Assembly (NCBI GenBank): GCA_951406725.2
Contig: OX597818.1
Coordinates: 89,714,001 to 89,778,000, forward strand
Direction: 5' to 3'
Origin: Octopus vulgaris
Lineage: Eukaryota
DNA: 64,000 nucleotides
Position 1 is the first letter of the stretch. Each line of letters begins with the position of its first letter. Position numbers and translations under genes: made by a program. The notes under the pieces are model-generated. The model was not told the DNA's origin, searched no databases, and saw only the letters and a program-made list of their open reading frames with translations. Positions 2,238 to 56,376 of the stretch are shown here, in pieces.

Positions 2238-2432
2238 GTTGTCCAAGGGAAAGGCAAAGGCCGATACAGCTTGGCACCTGTGACGTCACAACTCATTTCT
2301 TACAGATGAGTGAACAGGAGCAACGTGAAATAAAATGTCTTGCTCAAGAACACAACACACAACCCGGTCCAAGAATCGAACTCACTACCTCACGTTTGTA
2401 AGCCTGACACAAACCACTGAGCCATGCACCTT
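2238..2432 (-). mobile_element. tRNA/CORE-like SINE, family D (partial)
   Basis: Matches 24235-24437; tRNA-like head at the right end. Confidence 0.7.
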
Positions 2433-2755
2433 AACATACATATGTATGTACGTAATACATACATACATGCATGCATGCATGCATGCATGCGTACATACAG
2501 ACAATACGAGCTTCCACACAGTTTCCATTTGACAAATTCACTCACGAGGCATTAGTCAGTCCGAAACCTATACTCTTTTACACTTTTACTTGTTTGTAAT
2601 TTGACTGCGGCCATGTTGGAGCACCGCCTTTAGTCGAGCAAATCGACCCCAGGACTTATTCTTTGTAAGCCTAGTACTTATTTTATCGGTCTCTTTTGCC
2701 GAACCGCTAAGTGACGGGGACGTAAACACACCAGCATCGGTTGTCAAGCGATGTT

Positions 2756-2758
<3 letters not shown>

Positions 2759-2812
<54 letters not shown>

Positions 2813-4330
2813 TTACATACTCCTATACGCACATACATACACACAGACATACACACATACACACTCACACATACATACACACACATACTTACACACACAC
2901 TCGCCTGCACGCGCACACACATGCATGACAAACACCCATACACTCACACTCACATACACACACACCAACATATACACGCACACGCACACATACACGCACA
3001 CACACACACACACACGCCTACACACCTACATACACACACATGCATACACACACATACACGGACACACCCATACATACTTACATGCATACACCTATACACA
3101 CACGCCTACACACCTACATACACACACATGCATACACACACACACATGTACGCACATACACACACATATACGCACATACATATATACCTACATACATGCA
3201 CACACACACACACACACATACGCACACGCATGCATGCACGCACACGCGCACACCTACACGCATGTACGCATACATGCACACACACACACACACACGCACG
3301 TACACATACATACATACACACACACATACATACACCCATACACATACATGCATCCTACACACACAGACATACACATTCACACACACATACACACACACAC
3401 ACTCACTCACACACCTGCATGTACGCGCACACACATGCACATACACACACTTCCACACACACACACGTACATACATACACACTCATACACACACACACAC
3501 ACACACACACACGGACATACATCTATACACACACATATACACACACACATACTTACATACATTCATCGGACACACTGACACTCAGACTTACACACAGACA
3601 CACTCACACATCCACACACATACATACTCACACACGCAATCGCAGGCGCGCGCACATGCTCGCTTGTGCGCGTTCGCGCACGCATACACGCACGCTTGCA
3701 CCACGCTCTTGGTTGACCGACCGGATCTCCTGTCCGTATCTGGGGCTGGCGCGTTGTCTTTGGGTTCTCCCACGCCTGTCGCCGCGGGATCACTCTTCCA
3801 TCTTCCCCCTCATACACACACCCACTCACACACACACATTTGCATATATATACACATTACACTTACACACACACAACTTGCTTGCCACACACACAACTAC
3901 GCACGCTGGACATATACACACACTACCACTCAACACACACACTGGCACGTTACATACGCCCCCACCCTTTCCCGCCCCGCACGCACTAACATATACATAT
4001 TTTCTGTTTTTTATCACGCCTCACACACACATACACACACGCACATGCACAAACTCACACATACATACACACGCACACACACATACCTCCCTGTTTCTGA
4101 TCTGCCTTTCCGACTTGCTAGGGTACCCCCACACACACACATACACACACGCACACACTCACACATACATACACACGCACACACACATACTTCCCTGCTT
4201 CTGATCTGCCTTTCTGACTTGCTAGGGTACCCCCACACCACTCCTTTAATTCTACTACTGCTTGCTACTAGCCATTGTCCACCATACACACACATACACA
4301 CACACGTACACTCACACACACACACCGTCA
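2759..4330. repeat. Degenerate (CA)n tract with embedded GC-rich segments
   Basis: CA-rich throughout; a 46-bp unit CTCCCTGTTTCTGATCTGCC..GGGTACCCCCAC occurs at ~4086 and ~4189. Confidence 0.9.
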
Positions 4331-4399
4331 TCTCGCAACACCTTTTTTACCATTCCCTCATTGATTCAGCTCTCCTGTTTTTAAAAAAACATTTTCCTC

Positions 4400-4630
4400 C
4401 TTTTTTACTACTTCCGTCTTTTCAGTATGTGACCTCGTGAAGACGACCTGCAATTTTTTTTCCTCTGTCCTCCCGTCTCGGGATCTTTCTTTCTTTCTCT
4501 TATGTTTCCGACGAAGAGCTCCGCTCGAAACGTCATACCCTCCTTCTTCCATTTTCCTGAGCGCCTAATAATAATAATACTGTAATTGTTCCACGTGTTG
4601 TTGTTTTTTCTGTTTTCCCGTTTGGATTAA

Positions 4631-4632
<2 letters not shown>
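4400..4632 (+). mobile_element. PLE-like terminal repeat carrying a hammerhead
   Basis: Homologous to 52725-52910 and contains a hammerhead motif. Confidence 0.65.
4504..4538 (+). ncRNA. Minimal type I hammerhead ribozyme (one core mismatch)
   Basis: CCGACGA-A-GAGC(TCC)GCTC-GAA-ACGT-C; U4 is mutated to C in this copy. Confidence 0.65.
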
Positions 4633-4680
<48 letters not shown>

Positions 4681-5394
4681 TACATATACATATATACGAC
4701 GGGCTTCTTTCAGTTTCCGTCTACCAAATCCACTCACCAGGCTTTGGTCGGCCCGAGGCCATAATAGAAGACACTTGCCCAAGGTGCCACGCAGTGGGAC
4801 TGAACCCGGAACCATGTGGTTGGTAAGCAAGCTACTTACCACACAGCCACTCGAAGACACCCAAGGTTCGGTACAGTGCAGTAGGACTGAAACCGAAACT
4901 GCGTCGATCGCGTATGCACGCACCCTACCCCTTTACACTTGTATGAGTATGCGTATGTATTTATGTGTGTATACTCATATAGACGGATGAAGACTCCACA
5001 CGAGTTGTATAGATTAAGTATTTGTGTTTGTAACCTAATTGTGCTGCGTTACTCTAAGTCGTAGAGACTTATAAAGCACAGCTGTTCGTCATGTTGTTAT
5101 CGATCTGTAACGATCATCTAAGTTGAGCTCTTTATGTCAAACAAATTTAAATTAAAAAATGATGTTACATACACACACATCATATGCATATTCCCCCCAC
5201 CCCACACACACACATTCTTTAACATGTTTCAGTCATTTGACTGCAGTCATGCTGGAGCACCGCCTTAAAGGATGTTACTTGAAGAAATCGACACCAGGAC
5301 GTATTCTTTGTAAGCCTAGTACTTATTCTATCGGCCCTTTTTGCCGAACCGCTAAGTTACGAGGACATGACATAAACACAGCAGCATTCGTTGT

Positions 5395-5696
5395 CAGTGC
5401 GTAACTGGTACTTATTTAATCGACCCCGAAAGGATGAAAGGCAAAGTCGACCTCGGCTGAATTTGAACTCAGAACGTAGTAGCAGACGAAATACATATTT
5501 CTTTACTACCCACAAGGGGATAAACACAGAGAGGAGAAACAAGGACAGACAAAGGGATTAAGTCGATTATATCGACCCCGAAAGGATGAAAGGCAATGTC
5601 GACCTCGGCGGAATTTGAACTTAGAATGTAGCGGCAGACGAATACCGCTCAGTGTTTCGCCCGGCGTGCTAACGTTTTTGCCAGCTCGCCGCCTTC
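5395..5696 (-). mobile_element. SINE family C (Meta/MESC-like core), dimeric form
   Basis: Two copies of the core GCCTTTCATCCTTTCGGGGTCGAT separated by the Tx1-like tail. Confidence 0.8.
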
Positions 5697-5957
5697 TTAC
5701 CACACGACTATGCATGCTCCTATAGTATACCAAACACCGTGTGATCAATACAACGTGCGCTTTGGACTAGTTCCTAGGCGTTAAATACTCGTAAGGTTTA
5801 AATATAACGTTTGTAGAAAGCATAAATCCAGAGAAGATGCACATTCTTAGATGTAGAGTAATATATATTTTACTACAGAAGGCCGTTTTATGGGAAACCC
5901 AGTGTAATCCCCCATAAACCAGCCTTCCCAAGTAAAATATATATGTATATGTGTGTG

Positions 5958-5994
<37 letters not shown>

Positions 5995-5997
<3 letters not shown>

Positions 5998-6370
5998 ATA
6001 TAAACGGCAGTTTGTCTGTGCGTGTTTCTGTGTGTCTGTTTGCTTGTACCCTCACCCTGACCACGGCTTTCAACCGATTCTGATGAAACTTGACACACAC
6101 ATAGCCCAATGTCATAATTCAAAACTAACGCAGCGAAAATTTTGAAAAGTCCCCCCAGTTCTGAAAAAGATCGATAAATTCGACATGGGGTCGAGAATTA
6201 GACACAAACCGCAAACTGTCTAGGGGACGCAACTCCACCTTTTTTAACTAAAAAAAAAAATTTACCATCATTTTTTTCCATTTTTTTTGCTATTTTTTGG
6301 CTATAACTCTCTAAAAATGCTTTATAGTTATTTCCCTTACAAACCTGAGCAACGCCGGGCGATACTGCTA

Positions 6371-6371
<1 letters not shown>
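5995..6371 (+). mobile_element. Non-autonomous Helitron
   Basis: A|TC start, subterminal hairpin CCTGAGCAACGCCGGG, CTAG|T end. Confidence 0.8.
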
Positions 6372-6414
<43 letters not shown>

Positions 6415-13460: not shown

Positions 13461-14073
13461 AGGCAAGACTTCCGCTCGTCCCCTACCCTAAAAAAAACCC
13501 ACCCTTAAAAAAATTTTTTTTCGGCTACAAGAAATACGAATCTGCAAAAAAGAAATTAGCAAAAATTGTCATTTCTAAATTACCACCCTACCCCCATTTC
13601 CTTCATTTTTCACTTTTTTCAGAAATTTTTTACCCCCAAAATATGCGGAAAAATACGGAGATTATAATTGTGGAAAAAAGTTCCAAAAATATTTGTAAAA
13701 TTTTTTTAAAGAATTTTTCCCCTAAATATGCGGAAAAATACGGACGTTATGATTCGGACAAAAATTTCAAAACATTTCTGTACTTACGGTTACAGTTAGG
13801 GTTTTAGGGTTAGGATTAGGGTTAGGGTTAGGGTTTTAGGGTTATGGTTAGGGCTTTAGAGTTAGGGATTTAGGGTTAGGGTTTGTGTTGGGGAAAAAAG
13901 TCAAAATTGAAGAAGTTGGGGGTGAATGGGGAGGGGGAAATTTCACAATTCTTATTTTTGGCAATTTTCTCGAACCTCCGTATTCGAAAACGGGGATTTT
14001 TTGAAAAAAAAAACAAACTAAAAAAACCTAACAAATTTGGGAGAAAATGGGTGGGGGGCGGGCGGAAGTCTTT
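13461..14073. mobile_element. MITE with an internal degenerate (TTAGGG)n tract
   Basis: TIR AAGACTTCCGC.CG.CCC.ACCC at both ends; flanks CTGCGGGAC/CTGCAGGAC; telomere-like tract at 13788-13882. Confidence 0.7.
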
Positions 14074-48814: not shown

Positions 48815-49946
48815 TATATCACGTATTTAAAACATGATTATAAGCATTTATTTAACAAACATATTTCGTACATTATTATACAGAGCATTTAATACTCTAT
48901 CACACACTATCAGTACCCGTGGAAATTCCACGGCAAATAGGAAATTTTTTAGATAGTTGTAAGTTTATATAGAGCCATAAAAATCAGTGCTATTTTATAA
49001 ACTGTATATTCTGTATCATTTTCATTTAAAACACCTTTTAGTTCTTCTAGATAAGGCTGTAATTGAAGGAGCGTGACATTTCCGTTCGCTCAGCAGCTCA
49101 GAGGTTCAGTTACAAATCTAAGAGCTTCGCATTGATTACAGGGAATATTCATGTCACCACTGCAGTAACTTCGAACTATATGTTTACAGTTTCCTTTTTA
49201 CGTTCTCATTTTCATATTATAGTCTGTTTTAAGCACGTTCCCTTATCTTTTGTAAATACTTATTGTATACGCTTTGATTCATATTTTCCCTTCTACACAT
49301 TGATGCTCCTGTGCTTCTAGTGATTCGACTCTCTGCTTCTCTTTACATCATTTCTATACCGTTTCATTCTATTTCTTATTAGCTTACATCATCTGTCATC
49401 CATATTTTATATATAAATATCTATTTTCAACTGGGCAGATGACAAATACTTGCACTTATGCACATGCGTTACGTGATAGGCGATATAAAAGATCTGGTTC
49501 AATTAAGAAAAACATCTACATTTCTCACTATCCACTCACCCACTGCCACCTCGACCATCATCATCATGATCATTAGTAACAAAGCGCAGTCTAAATTGTT
49601 TGCTAAGCATGATTATTTCATTTCATTTGTTTGTTTTATCTACATTTCTTGCTGTCGGTATAAAGTTCGAATAAATAATTAAAAAAAAAATAATAACATC
49701 CATGGCTATTTTGCTAAGTCATTTCACTTTCATTGAAAAATTTATCTTTCTATTATAAGTTTATTATTTTTGTTATTATTATTATTATTATTATTCCTTC
49801 TTCAGGCCAATCATCGATGGATTTGTAAATGAGGATAGATAAATAGTTCGACAGATAGAAGATGTAAAAAAACTGAATATTAAAATGTTATTTTCTTGTT
49901 AGTCACAATAATAAATGTTTAGAATTTCTCTCTGCTACACACACAC

Positions 49947-50002
<56 letters not shown>

Positions 50003-50246
50003 TTAAACTTCAACAAACTTTTTAATCGTGTCATTCCCCTCTTCATGTCGTTATCATTTCTCTTCGCTTGTCACTTCCACTAATCACATGACAGCTTAAT
50101 TTATCGGCCGACAATAATGCCACTGCTCTCCTCTCTCTCTATTTTCCTTCTTTAATCTCACCATCAGAACATCACACCTCTGCTAAACATTGTATTTCTA
50201 ACTCTCTTTCTCTATATCACTCCCTTCAACTAACTTCTTAACCTCC

Positions 50247-50545
50247 CGTTTGCACCGTGAACAGGGATTAATCTTCTCTCTTCGCTCCTTTGCGCCACAT
50301 GGACTCAGCTCTCTTCCACTCTTCATCTAACCTCCTCCCCTCGCTTCTCTCCTCCTCACACCCACCTCTCCTCTCTTGCTCTGACTCCTACTTCTTGTCT
50401 TCACTCCTTCTCTCCACACTTACCCAAACTCTAATACATCTGTTTGTTGTCTACACCACCTGTCTTCGTCTTTTGGTTTTTTTTGTGAATTCTCCCCTAA
50501 TGAAGTTATCACCGATGCTATTAACGAGACAAATTATCTGGGACA
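50247..50545 (+). mobile_element. Penelope-like 3' fragment (GIY-YIG C-terminus and decayed hammerhead)
   Basis: RLHREQGLIFSLRSFAPHGL matches the R.REQ.LIF.L....P.GLN motif. Confidence 0.65.
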
Positions 50546-51784
50546 TATGCACCCATATGTTTTACGACTACGAAGAGTGTTCATATTTTGGTCTGTGTAA
50601 AATGTCGGTGTTACTGAATGTGAACGGCAACGAAGGCAAGACCTTCAGACTAATTGCTGTTTAAGGGATGCAAAACGATGAATATGATTGTCGCTTTTGT
50701 TAAGGCCAGGGTGAAGAACCCTCAGCTACTCAGCTCATCTCGTCGGACCTACTTGCACAGATTGAGAGCTAAATTTGACTTGGGAGTACCTGAAGTTCTC
50801 AGCAACAGTTGCTTTAACATCAGATACAGTGTTGGTCTTGGATGCATCCCAGCAGGTTGTTCTGTTAGAGTTCTCCATTCCCTGGAGGATTGTGTTAAGG
50901 GGTTAAATGAGAGGAAGAGAACGAAATGTTCTGAGCTTGTGAAGTTTTGCTGAAACAATGGGTGGCAAGCAAGATGTAATTCCATTGAAGTGGAATGCGG
51001 AGAGTTTGTAGGTCAGTCTCTATGTAGAGTTTTCAGCGTGCTGGGCATCACAAGAGCCAGTAGGGGGGAAGGCCAAGTTGTGTACGGAGCAGCCGAATTT
51101 CTCCAAGCCGAATTTCTAGTGATTCGACTCTCTGCTTCTCTTTACATCATTTCTATACCGTTTCATTCTATTTCTTATTAGCTTACATCATCTGTCATGA
51201 TACAGAATGGATCAGGAAATGTGACACGGCGGAAAAGATTGCTTAGCGGCATCGAGGAAGTCAACTTCGCCTTTCATTCTTTTAGGGTCGATAAAATATA
51301 GTACCAATCAAGTACTAGGGTCGATGTAATCGATTAGCCCTTGCCTCCTAAAATTGCTGGCTTTGTGCCAAAATGTGAAGCAATTGTTTAAATTTCTTTT
51401 TGCTACCCTCTCTACTGTTTTTCGGATCGTCTTTTGTTTTTAGTTCTTTTCTCTTCCTTCGTTTCTCTACCATTTTCTCATATGCTTTCCTTTCACTCTC
51501 CCGATTTGTCTATTTTCTTTATCTCGTTTCTCTTCTCTGTTTCCATCCATATTATTCCAATTCTCTCTCCCTACTAATAAATATTTTAATTATGAGTCCT
51601 ATTTGTTTACATGCCTGTTTTATTCCTTATACACAAAAACTCATAAAGTGAGTAACTGTAGTTTCTTCTAAAGAAACAGCAGCTGAGCTGAAACACAAAG
51701 GTTCATTTGTAAGGAAACCTCTAACTCACATTATTTTTAACATTAGCTTCCTTATAACTGTGGTTTTCTTAATTTGTATGATCG

Positions 51785-51822
<38 letters not shown>

Positions 51823-52006
51823 CCTGTGTCTGTCTCCCACACACAGGGCATACTGTTCAGTGAAGGTAAGATCAACAAAAATGTACTTCATCTGGTGAAA
51901 GACAAATATCGCTCAATGAACACAGCATATACTTTTATGAACTACCATTAGTAGCTGCTAATGGCATGAAACTATTAGTAACTCATACAAATATATACTG
52001 TGTTCA

Positions 52007-52037
<31 letters not shown>

Positions 52038-52042
<5 letters not shown>

Positions 52043-52678
52043 TTATCGCCATACTAATATGGCATTCTTATAAAAATAAGAATAAAGCTGACCGCTTATT
52101 AGCTCCATGAGGCCATCGCCTTAAGTTAGCTATTTGATACACAAACTGTATCCATATAACCTTTGAACAAGGGAGGTCAGTCGCTCCACACTACTTGGCC
52201 GGCAGCTACAGACGCGTTTCGGGGTATTGCCCCTTTTCAATGCAGCGTAGCCAAACCAGTAGGTGTCGCTTCCGACAATCTCTGTTCAAAGGTTTTATTT
52301 TCCTAGCTTCGGTGGAATACATCCACTTGTTTTCAATAATAGAAATATTAAAATTACTAAGTCTCTCTAAAAGAGAACAACGGCAGCGTTCCCGGAAAAT
52401 ATTAGTTATCGCCATACTAATATGGCATTCTTTTAAAAATAAGAATGTAGCTGCCGGGCCAAGTACTGTGGAGCGACTGACCTCCCTTGTTCAAAGGTTA
52501 TATGGATACAGTTTGTGTATCAAATAGCTAACTTAAGGCGATGGCCTCATGGAGCTAATAAGCGGTCAGCTTTATTCTTATTTTTATAAGAATGCCATAT
52601 TAGTATGGCGATAACTAATATTTTCCGGGAATGCTGCCGTTGTTCTCTTTTAGAGAGACTTAGTAATTTTAATATTTC

Positions 52679-52684
<6 letters not shown>
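52038..52684. mobile_element. PLE/retrozyme-like element: 363-nt tandem unit plus inverted arm
   Basis: Direct repeat at 52038 and 52401; 52446-52684 is the reverse complement of 52336-52400 plus 52038-52210. Confidence 0.85.
52205..52246 (-). ncRNA. Type I hammerhead ribozyme, U3-A8 core variant
   Basis: Minus: GCTGCA-TTGAAAA-GGGG(CAATA)CCCC-GAA-ACGCGT-C-TGTAGC. Confidence 0.85.
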
Positions 52685-52715
<31 letters not shown>

Positions 52716-52789
52716 TACATTTCAATATGTGACCGCGTGTGTATCGTTGGCAATTTTCTTTTTCCTTGGACTTTTTCTTTTTTTTCTGT

Positions 52790-52824
52790 ATTTCTGACGA
52801 AGAGCTCCGCTCGTAACGTTAAAT
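52790..52824 (+). ncRNA. Minimal hammerhead ribozyme (one core mismatch) in a PLE-like fragment (52725-52910)
   Basis: ATTT-CTGACGA-A-GAGC(TCC)GCTC-GTA-ACGT-T-AAAT; A13 is mutated to U. Confidence 0.65.
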
Positions 52825-52964
52825 CCTCCTTTCTTTCCTTCCTTGAGCATCCAATAACACTATACTTGTTCCACGTCCTCGCGTTTTCTCTTTGTTCATG
52901 TTTGGATTATCTGTGTATGTGTGTGTGTGTGTGTGTATGTGTGTGTGTGTGTGTGCGTGTGTGT

Positions 52965-53485
52965 GATTATTCAGTTTAATTCAAGATTTCTTGTCTATAG
53001 AGAAAGAGTCGGTTTCTAATCTAAGGCTCCTTCATTGGAATTTCAACAACAGGGTATTTTGTATGTACGTACATGTGCAGATTTGTATGTTTTGCTTTAT
53101 GTATGTATTCTCACGTATGTAGTTGCATATCTAGACATGCTCATATATATTCTTAAATGATAAACGTTTGGAAAGTTTTACAGATTTTTACAGTTCCAGT
53201 GATGGATTGGATCTGTAGTCTTCGAATCAGCTTTCTCCTACCTGGTTTTGAGAAGCTTAATTTCTCATGACTTTAGGCAATGGGATACATATCCCAGTGC
53301 CCCAATAATTACAGGTATAAACCTGAACTTGTAATATGTATAGAGTAACTTCAAATTTCTCAATACTCCAGCGTAGGTATTTTCTTTTTCGCTGATCTTC
53401 AACTTTATGTTAACATCCTCTGGACAGCTAATTTCCACAACTGTATACAGTTTCTCTTCTCGTTTGTAAATTGCTATGTCATGTA
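52965..53485 (-). pseudogene. R4/Dong LINE 3' fragment (RLE domain and UTR)
   Basis: VVEISCPEDVN..EKENTY..LKLLY..FIPVIIGALG. Confidence 0.8.
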
Positions 53486-53762
53486 TATTATGTTTACATT
53501 GTATGTATGTATCTATGTCTGTATGAAAGACGTTAAAGATATCTATCCCGATATACACTAACCGTGTAGAGTGCATTTTTACGTTGGTGTATAGATCAGT
53601 GCTCTGTCATCTTTTTACACTTGTAGTACACTTCTATTCTTTCCAAAACTCGGCGGCACACCTGAACTAAAAATATGACACCTAGCATTGTCTAGTGGAA
53701 CACCAGTGTGCCGCAGCATACCGATTGCAGAGCACTGGTATAAATAGCACACACACGCACAC

Positions 53763-53812
<50 letters not shown>

Positions 53813-54240
53813 ACGCGTTATAAATATCTAATGTTAATTGTTCTACTTTCCAATTTTGTTGGAGTCGAGTTCTCTCAAGACAGATAATGAGCCATCTTAA
53901 GATAGTTTAATGATTTTATTGCTTGAGTTAAATCTAGTCTACGGTGACATTGCAATTCAACGCTCCGAGCGTTAACGGAGTCACCTAGAAAATTACAGAT
54001 TACGTAGTTCAGATCTATTCAGCGTACCTGTTTAATTTTTTCTGTCTTAAACTGGTTTATATAATATTTTATGCTACTTTAATTATACAGTGTGAAGGTG
54101 AGTGGCCTAATAATTAGGGCGTTACACTCGCGATCAAGCAATTATGGTTTCAACTCTCAGGCCTAGAGGTTCGTTATGCTCTCGAGCAAAATAAAAACGA
54201 ATTGATATTGAAAAAGTCGGAAAATACTGCAGGTTCTTAT

Positions 54241-54393
54241 TCGCCAGACAGCGTAGTAAATCCAATTGAGGAATTTAGTTATAAACCAGAAGGGATTACC
54301 TTCTCTGCTTATTTATAAAGATACGAAGAAATCTTCAAAAAAGAATGTAAAAATTGGACGGACGAGGAAAAAGTACGGCTACTTTTAAGAAAG
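54241..54393 (+). pseudogene. Gypsy-type gag remnant
   Basis: IEEFSYKPEGITFSAYL*RYEEIFKKECKNWTDEEKVRLLLRK. Confidence 0.6.
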
Positions 54394-55889
54394 TCACTCC
54401 TCCACTGCTTCTTAAATTATATATCTGTAGCGAATCTTGCATGCATGAAGTGGATTCGATCCACCACAGCGAAATTTAAATTAACACTGCAACAGAACTT
54501 TTCCCACGGTGGAATAATGGTTTGTCTCTGACAGCAGTTTTACATTTTCTAGATGCCTTTAGCTAGGCCGAAATAATGTTTTCACCACTTGACCCTTTCT
54601 AACCTCTTCTACTTCACCAAAAGCTGGAGTAGAGATAACAAGACCACCAACTAAATCTATTGTTCTCAATGATATGTCTATCCTTCTGGATCTTTATATA
54701 AGCAAGCACACTCCAAACAAAAATCAGTTAGTCACTGCAGTGACAACTCAGTGAGAACGAAGTCTGGCTGACCAGCTAGAACATTGGTCAGAGGGAGAAA
54801 TGAAGACCAAGTAAAAACCGTTACATATCCAACGCCAGGATATATAAACGGGGCCCAGCAATAAATGGGAATAGCTGGGAAGTTAAACGTTCAACGGAAC
54901 TGCCTCCCATTCTCAATTTTCAATCACTTAACGGTATAGACCAGAATACCGGACGTTATACGTCGTTGGTCACAATGCGCTTCGTATTGCTTTTAACTTT
55001 CGAATAACGCCCCACCCTGCTGACAAAGCGCGCAAGGCAACATTCTCCGCTGATCGGAAGGGCTTTTCCGTCACAGGGTTACCCTTTTACAGCCGAGTGG
55101 ACTGAAACAATGCTAAATGAAGTGTTTTGCACCTTCTGTTTCGTGAGTACTTCATTCCAACAGAACAGCTAACGTTAGGTTTTATAACATATGTGCGTGC
55201 GTGAGTGCATGCTTGTATAGTGTCTATACACGTAGGTAAAAACAAACTCTCTACAGTTACAAGCGTATATCGGAGGAGGTTTCTTCAACTTCCTCTCACG
55301 TAAGGAAATTTGACTGACTGATTGATTGATACATACATACATACGTACATAAATACATACACACATAAATACATACGTATATACATACATACAACCTATA
55401 TACACACATACAGGTATACATACACACAAATACATACATAGATGTATATATGTATACATACATGTATGTATACACACACATACACACACATATGTATGTA
55501 TGTATATTCACTAGTATGTTTATGTGCGTGCTCATGCGACACGCTTCTGCACAGTTTCCGTTTACCATTTCATTCACAAAGCATAGATCACCCCACTGTC
55601 ATAGCAATGACACCAGAATCCGTTGTGGAGGAGCTAACTTTTTACTCATGTAGCCATACCTGCACCTCTTCCCACAGCCACGCCCCTTTTATTATTCTGT
55701 GTTCATTTCAAGTTGAGATCGGTTTTGTGCTTCAGCCTCTCGGCTTCGATAAATTTGAGATAAAATTCAAGATGTCAAGATGTCAACCAACCAACCAGCC
55801 AACTAACGTACACCGTACATCCATCCATGACAGTTGTCTACTCCTTATGCAGAGTCTGACAACCTCTTGCATTTACAGCTCAGATCTAT

Positions 55890-56376
55890 CATGGCATCTG
55901 ATGTGGCTATCCGGTTTTCATTGCGTCTAATGTGGTTACTCGGTTTCCATGGCGTTTGGTGCGGTTACCCGGTTTCCATGACGTCTGGTGTGGCTACCCA
56001 ATTTCCATGGCGTCTGATATAGCTACTTGGTTTCTATGGCGTCAGATGTGGATACCCGATTTCCATGGCGTCTGATGTGGCCACCTAGTTTTCATGACGT
56101 TTGATGTGGCTACCCGGTTTTCATGACGTTTGATGTGGCTACCCGGTTTTTATTGCGTCTGATGTGGCTACTTGGTTTCCTTGGCGTCTGATGTGGCTAC
56201 CCGGATTCCATGGCATCTAATGTGGCTACTCGATTTCCATGGCGTCTGATGTGGTTCTCCGGTTTCCATTGCGTCTGATGTGGTTCCCCGGTTTCCATTG
56301 CGTCTGATGTGGCCACCCGGCTTCCATTGCGCCTGATGTGGCCACCCGGCTTCCATTGCGCCTGATGTGGCTACCC
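55890..56376. repeat. 29-bp minisatellite, about 17 copies
   Basis: Unit GCGTCTGATGTGGCTACCCGGTTTCCATG, contiguous with no spacers. Confidence 0.95.

Follow-up and report, generated by a model that had tools for sequence, protein, structure and literature searches.

The window, a stretch of 64,000 nucleotides from Octopus vulgaris (contig OX597818.1, positions 89,714,001 to 89,778,000), contains an insertion of a young, non-coding hammerhead repeat that carries the two-armed signature of Penelope-like elements (PLEs). The explanation we prefer, at a probability of roughly 0.6, is that a PLE protein likely primes two cDNAs at (TA)n targets and probably does so on a self-cleaved, circularised monomer of the repeat. 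An earlier note on this DNA had described the unit as retrozyme/PLE-like, and this identity was supported by tandem hammerhead units and by insertion ends of the PLE type.

Architecture of the insertion in the window

Positions within the repeat are numbered from the first base 3' of the predicted cleavage site (u1), with a unit of 363 nt. The window copy (L001) and its surroundings comprise the following features.

52010-52035, no strand: (TA)n target, left flank, from the sequence
52036-52445, minus strand: arm B of the window copy, u129-363 then u1-175, with its 3' end at the 'short' start site u175
52205-52246, minus strand: type I hammerhead motif, the only one in the window copy, from sequence, conservation, covariation and dimer fold
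52446-52684, plus strand: arm A, u1-238, head-to-head with arm B, with its 5' end at the cleavage site and its 3' end at the 'long' site u238
52622-52684, plus strand: 63-nt 'tail' (u176-238) between the two fixed 3' start sites, on the end of one arm only
52446-52453, no strand: head-to-head arm junction, 1 nt of exact overlap and imperfect microhomology of 6/8 nt
52685-52717, no strand: (TA)n target, right flank, from the sequence

Arm A starts at 52446 on the plus strand and reads TGTAGCTGCC. At the junction 6 of 8 nt agree with the continuation of the other arm, and the exact overlap of 1 nt leaves an uncertainty of 1 nt in the arm start; the claim that this start lies exactly at the predicted cleavage site was borne out at that precision. 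The 363-nt period proposed for the unit was confirmed in tandem copies elsewhere, whereas within the window just 55 nt are directly repeated at this spacing (52036-52090 and 52399-52453). The 408-nt arm was highly structured (z of -7.49 against shuffles, 0/100 folding as well), and the 81-nt hammerhead region alone showed a modest folding excess (z of -1.59, with 13/200 shuffles folding equally well). As it carries a single hammerhead, the window locus is predicted to be unable to release a monomer in cis, and the window copy is likely a dead end as a source.

Size and content of the repeat family

The assembly (2.80 Gb, 227 contigs) was searched with a 29-mer of the unit, which gave 2214 exact matches; the first 100 listed fall in 43 loci, suggesting a family of about 950 loci, or roughly a thousand copies. 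The nearest copies were 98-99% identical to the window copy and older lineages 93-97%, and a sister subfamily with the same architecture and at least 753 matches to its motif was about 83-87% identical. Units were 363 nt long (also 362 nt), arranged in tandem with one hammerhead motif each, and had a GC content of 0.41 (41%). Inside the units of one array (L010) there was no sense-strand ATG ORF of 40 aa and only a 77-aa antisense frame, no tRNA was found in 3 loci, and an RT plus GIY-YIG ORF was absent from the unit and from 30 sister loci. The suggestion that other copies might adjoin an RT/GIY-YIG ORF was not upheld, none belonging to any copy examined. Two hammerheads in tandem were present in about 12 of 42 unbiased loci, which could act as new sources.

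A 393-nt contig (363+30) occurred in two read sets, X2 (guessed to be RNA) and X16 (kind unknown); this is the length expected from a closed cycle, but it was not counted as evidence for a circle because tandem DNA or multimers give the same length. Alignment of the subfamilies (A1) also showed a conserved stretch at about u239-280, between the u238 site and the long stem, which is a possible internal promoter or protein-binding site.

The U3-A8 hammerhead

On the minus strand, stem I is formed by GCTGCA (52246-52241) on the 5' side and TGTAGC (52210-52205) on the 3' side (GCUGCA/UGUAGC in RNA), around a core of TTGAAAA (52240-52234; UUGAAAA in RNA, with U3 and A8), a stem II (52233-52221 with its loop) of GGGG/CCCC closed by CAATA and followed by GAA, and a palindromic stem III, ACGCGT (52217-52212; ACGCGU), with C17 at 52211. 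Cleavage is predicted after GUC, between 52211 and 52210. The minus-strand hammerhead with a U3-A8 pair and stems I-III that had been described earlier was thereby verified in the sequence, and U3-A8 proved to be the state of the family: a 35-mer of the hammerhead had 763 genome matches, UUGAAAA was present in 100/100 of those listed, and 130 hammerhead regions comprised 121 with UUGAAAA, 2 with UUGACAA, 7 damaged or unparsed and 0 with C3-G8. Core position 7 varied, and U3 and A8 were invariant.

Covariation was assessed in 16 distinct copies from both subfamilies, in which 96.4% of cells were paired as compared with 21-54% in slid controls, and 5 of 14 stem pairs changed on both sides. The covariation score was reached by 0/500 shuffles, a figure not to be read as a probability, since the 16 rows share ancestry and the shuffle takes no account of it. 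Stem III occurred as ACGCGU, ACAUGU and ACUAGU, a palindrome in every case, and stem II as GGGG/CCCC, AGGG/CCCU and GAGG/CCUC. The ribozyme motif thus looks to be under selection, and the covariation together with palindrome retention would imply selection for a ribozyme that works as a dimer. The minimum-energy fold of a natural tandem (L004) was a domain-swapped double hammerhead with a 6-bp stem III (-166.5 kcal/mol), and the fold with two monomer hammerheads (-147.0 kcal/mol) lay 19.5 kcal/mol above it. This predicted fold agrees with the proposal that the minimal hammerhead acts as a dimer; a double hammerhead of this kind would release exactly one 363-nt unit, its activity being a prediction.

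A U3-A8 core has already been described in Schistosoma PLE hammerheads, and minimal hammerheads of the PLE type cleave weakly in vitro (both PMC4209133); for Xenopus retrozyme dimers, 8 of 9 are reported not to cleave (10.64898/2026.07.22.740005). A cleavage rate for a U3-A8 hammerhead was not found in the portions of the literature searched. An Rfam scan of 49000-56000 returned no hammerhead family at E<=10, so model-based searches do miss the U3-A8 variant, in line with the earlier expectation that it would escape detection. A permissive search of the window for TGANRA gave 332 matches against 381 expected and was uninformative. Separately, a hammerhead motif with a canonical core was seen in an unrelated repeat (L295:251, plus strand), with CUGACGA, GAGG/CCUC and the palindromic ACUCGAGU.

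Paired 3' ends at (TA)n targets

To describe the insertion ends we compiled censuses in which overlapping duplicate loci were dropped and the duplication at L092 was counted once. In 73 loci, 122 of 134 arms ended at u167-178 or u234-239 (60 at about u175 and 62 at about u238), and 112 of these 122 fixed 3' ends run into TA repeats. The arms of two-armed loci were all head-to-head, with tail-to-tail arrangements occurring solely between duplicated blocks. The 73 loci gave 45 distinct mixed pairs of ends and 1 same-end pair, and 75 further loci gave 53 and 0. This amounts to 98 u175+u238 pairs and 1 u238+u238 pair in 148 loci (98/99 classifiable pairs mixed), where independent choice of ends is expected to give about half same-end pairs; the rest comprised 16 two-armed loci with a non-standard end, 2 cut by an edge, 2 unclassified double blocks and 29 that were single-armed or irregular. 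The sister subfamily showed 10 mixed and 0 same-end pairs. The pairing of 3' ends at u175 and u238 is the main signature of these insertions, and both it and the targeting of (TA)n had been overlooked in the earlier reading. At a non-TA site (L048) a target duplication of 10 bp was seen, 1 in 8 loci inspected, most targets being (TA)n in which a duplication is unreadable. Where the two arms meet, the overlap was 2 nt or more in 25/49 cases against 17% expected, a conservative figure because negative overlaps partly reflect haplotype differences from the yardstick unit.

These insertions show three marks of PLE mobilisation, a head-to-head 5'-truncated arm, a tail at one end and a (TA)n target. 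PLEs carry an inverted 5'-truncated copy and a tail of 30-40 bp, often at one end only (PMC8557442, PMC3846280), and a purified PLE protein, modelled as a dimer, cuts both strands of AT-rich DNA and starts reverse transcription at two internal sites that bound the tail (PMC11167929). Self-priming on an antisense template has been proposed for head-to-head repeats (PMC3846280); two primed cDNAs would better fit the scattered junctions with short overlaps. Twin priming of the L1 type was rejected because both arms span the same sequence and not adjacent parts of it. Two loci show neighbouring insertions: in L281 main-family and sister-family copies lie side by side in one TA tract, and in L181 (L181/L151) a sister copy lies tail-to-tail with a PLE across one TA-rich tract.

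A candidate helper element

A GIY-YIG search revealed many PLE copies in the genome, among them a young family, mostly 97-99% identical, with intact RT plus GIY-YIG frames of 781 codons (P0001). The P0001 protein has a CX4CX2C motif before the endonuclease, a feature described for Neptune/Nematis (PMC8557442). Its hammerhead has a UUGAUAA core, again with U3-A8, and an ACAUGU stem III, both as in the sister subfamily. P0001 elements have 3' ends at two positions separated by 39 nt, each running into (TA)n, and a short end is paired with a tailed end in 3/3 head-to-head loci. By these likenesses the P0001 family is a candidate helper.

No homology between P0001 and the 363-nt unit was found by blastn, the few bases CTATTAT and AATAT being common to the start sites, and tblastn of P0001 against the window gave no match. 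In the partner search 150 of 6136 GIY-YIG candidates were scored; an autonomous PLE homologous to the unit was not found among 30+30 PLE loci (10 in both sets), matches of other PLE families to the unit stayed at chance level (up to 26 nt), and the 5' flanks of single-armed copies held no PLE-derived second arm. The sister motif was tried as a lead to an autonomous partner and led to the related retrozyme subfamily instead. The P0001-type loci (L163-L182; for example L173, oriented 2378-6382) also have a repeat-rich region with a recurring GATGACGTC after the ORF.

5' ends and the cleavage site

The earlier note had proposed testing whether 5' ends pile up at TGTAGCTGCC. Across the genome, exact read-through of the cleavage site was seen in 1395 copies, and 55 matches had another base at -1. 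Some 97% of the copies spanning this site thus continue through it, and stops at u1-3 make up about 3% of passes. Among the 31 of these 55 matches that were inspected, 24 were true ends, which scales to about 43 at u1-3; two control windows of the same construction gave about 21 and 22, an excess of about twofold (scaled from 31/55, 30/42 and 30/31 inspected matches). A pile-up at the cleavage site was consequently rejected as the main pattern. Possible sources of the twofold excess are a share of cleaved templates, pausing where the RNA had been ligated, and TA/AGCT microhomology. 5' ends were most frequent at u30-56 (19/66 arms, in a hazard table covering 66 of 78 arms with 12 minor or non-standard arm fragments excluded), and the window junction is a minority case. 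The earlier conclusion that the insertion was copied from self-cleaved RNA, and that the ribozyme was therefore active, may hold for the window copy; a single junction proves no activity, and the conclusion does not extend to the family in general.

The template of reverse transcription

Perfect tandem units within arms numbered up to 5.5 (L091) and about 7-7.5 (L287). All parts of a locus share a haplotype: the mismatch at 27 informative sites rose from 3.8% inside an arm to 4.6% between arms and to 28.8% when loci were compared, although much of this contrast reflects subfamily structure; within the young subfamily opposite arms were no closer than different loci (0.71% each). In 162 loci, variants in two-armed multi-copy insertions were present in all copies of both arms (8), in all but one (6), in inner copies only (8), in the first-copied pass of both arms only (2; L274 and L279) or in a mixed pattern (1), and 180 of the 205 variants were single-copy and uninformative. 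In a minor lineage, two variants recur in both arms of four loci, one of which has an additional variant in all four units covering the site. Variants shared by all units of both arms favour a bottleneck of one unit, as a circle would give, and on this pattern we would favour a circular template over the alternatives by about two to one. The prevalent read-through at the cleavage site and the arms of 5.5 and about 7.5 units also count in favour of a circle. The variants restricted to inner copies or to first passes point to multimeric templates, conversion or later tandem duplication occurring as well.

In the mechanism that we propose, the transcript of an array with two hammerheads is predicted to fold as a domain-swapped double hammerhead and to free one 363-nt monomer, which would then stay uncut because no stable stem III is predicted to form in it alone, and which a host ligase would close. 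A PLE RT-endonuclease, likely a dimer, would bind near u130-240 and make a staggered double-strand cut in (TA)n DNA. Both target 3' ends would then prime, one cDNA starting from u175 and the other from u238, and each reverse transcription would proceed for a variable distance, completing laps of the circle when it continues long enough; the cDNAs would then pair through a few bases at their 3' ends and be filled in. In its most specific form, with the subunits of a PLE dimer starting at u175 and u238 and running round one viroid-like 363-nt circle excised by a U3-A8 double hammerhead before the cDNAs join head-to-head, we put this forward only tentatively. If it is true, each of the roughly one thousand copies in the genome is a fossil record of reverse transcription that was target-primed at two ends and followed a rolling circle, carried out by a PLE that shares no detectable sequence with its parasite.

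A point against this scheme is that PLE insertion in vitro did not require cleavage (PMC11167929). A rival that we regard as rather unlikely retains the two-ended PLE insertion but takes as template a linear transcript that reads through a tandem array and is for the most part uncleaved; the hammerhead would be slow or act rarely, and unequal exchange would lengthen the arrays once inserted. Uncleaved RNA and circles account equally well for read-through at the cleavage site, the RNA used for PLE insertion in vitro was unprocessed (PMC11167929), and the 2 variants confined to first-copied passes and the 8 confined to adjacent inner copies favour such a template. However, the 8 variants found in all units of both arms, plus L272/L273, would need a one-unit bottleneck, the four-copy arm of L272 exceeds every other array with that variant in the assembly, and the stem covariation and palindromes described above speak for a dimer ribozyme kept working by selection.

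A template consisting of the linear self-cleaved monomer, as inferred earlier, would require RT to build tandems by jumping, on reaching the 5' end of a monomer, to the 3' end of a second one. We consider this improbable: the window arm does begin at the cleavage site and true ends at u1-3 are more numerous than in the controls, but with 1395 exact read-throughs against 55 other matches the jumps would need near-constant precision, a hot spot of similar strength exists at u30-56, and the excess at u1-3 may stem from the TA and AGCT microhomology at u3-7. Still more remote is a satellite or foldback element whose spread at the DNA level depended on recombination or a DNA transposase and whose hammerhead is a relic. 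DNA transposons have terminal inverted repeats, whereas the outer ends here are two different fixed positions and the inner 5' ends are scattered; the loci are dispersed and short, and an RT-encoding PLE of this genome has the same end pattern. The inverted arms, the tandem units and some local tandem duplication would suit a DNA-level origin, which the end census has already largely refuted.

Comparison with known mobile elements

Metazoan non-LTR retrozymes (Cervera and de la Pena 2020, PMC7229834; 10.64898/2026.07.22.740005) share with the octopus family a non-coding tandem unit of 150-450 nt with a GC content below 50%, one type I hammerhead per unit with a dimer-type stem III, a strongly self-paired predicted circle and co-occurrence with PLEs; mussel retrozyme units are 350-390 bp long (PMC7229834). 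The canonical retrozyme core is CUGANGA (C3-G8), whereas that of the octopus family is U3-A8, so descriptors built on CUGANGA would miss it. The fixed pair of 3' ends, the tail and the head-to-head arms of the octopus family are not described for retrozymes in the available portions of PMC7229834 and 10.64898/2026.07.22.740005. Cleavage and circles have been shown for published retrozymes, while the octopus family is known from sequence and predicted folds. Where retrozymes have a target duplication it is longer than 4 bp; of 8 octopus loci inspected, L048 alone showed a readable one, of 10 bp, most targets being (TA)n. PLE-derived retrozymes (Li et al. 2026, 10.64898/2026.07.22.740005) are homologous to the pLTR of an autonomous PLE, a homology that was not found here in the 30+30 PLE loci sampled, with 150 of 6136 candidates scored. 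Being tandem, non-coding and of fitting size, the repeat would appear to work like a non-LTR retrozyme, its core departing from the canonical one.

EN+ PLEs of the Neptune/Nematis type likewise have an inverted 5'-truncated head-to-head arm and a tail at one end (PMC8557442, PMC3846280, PMC11167929), two internal starts of reverse transcription, a (TA)n target and a hammerhead with palindromic stem III, which is U3-A8 in Schistosoma (PMC11167929, PMC4209133). They differ from the octopus repeat in that the latter lacks an RT/GIY-YIG ORF and consists wholly of a 363-nt cyclic unit, repeated up to about 7 times in an arm, with a tail of 63 nt as compared with 30-40 nt; the repeat is not an autonomous PLE. 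The P0001 element, which is also young, resembles the repeat in its two 3' ends, (TA)n flanks and short/tail pairing and differs in its shorter tail (39 nt in place of 63 nt) and in lacking a blastn match to the unit. Non-autonomous Chlamys PLEs such as MRC1 are also PLE passengers with multicopy head-to-tail insertions; the 3' ends of these passengers resemble that of their autonomous partner, and hammerheads are absent from most Chlamys (PMC8557442), whereas no homologous partner of the octopus repeat was found in the PLE loci sampled.

The single components, namely the U3-A8 core, the tail, the inverted arm and the retrozyme, are each already known, and mobilisation of animal retrozymes by PLEs and circular RNA as template for reverse transcription are published hypotheses that rest on co-occurrence, shared hammerheads and pLTR homology (PMC7229834; 10.64898/2026.07.22.740005). 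The available portions of the literature searched held no report of this octopus family or of two-armed retrozyme insertions. Here the ends of the insertions themselves bear the PLE signature. That a short end is almost always joined with a tailed one (98 to 1) constrains the origin of the inverted repeats and tails of PLEs, which PMC8557442 calls undefined. As one genome supplies both a 363-nt substrate whose two start sites are mapped and an intact candidate enzyme, the system lends itself to in vitro tests, and surveys based on CUGANGA can miss entire retrozyme families.

Other features of the window

An imperfect inverted repeat at 51906-52017 (47-nt arms, 77%) adjoins the left (TA)n flank and was unmatched in the other fetched loci. 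To the right of the insertion, a repeat at about 52720-52910 contains a second, unrelated hammerhead-like motif (52795-52830, plus strand) with CUGACGA, the stem AGAGC/GCUC and GUAA replacing GAAA. This repeat was matched in 21 of 271 fetched loci, other copies keeping GAAA, and the motif probably represents a degraded piece of the pLTR of a different PLE family. At 49315-49399 and 51114-51198, 1799 nt apart, lie the two copies of an exact direct repeat of 85 nt, which possibly mark the ends of another mobile element. The window also contains a 29-nt minisatellite of about 17 copies at 55890-56376 and a degenerate TTAGGG tract at 13784-13894.
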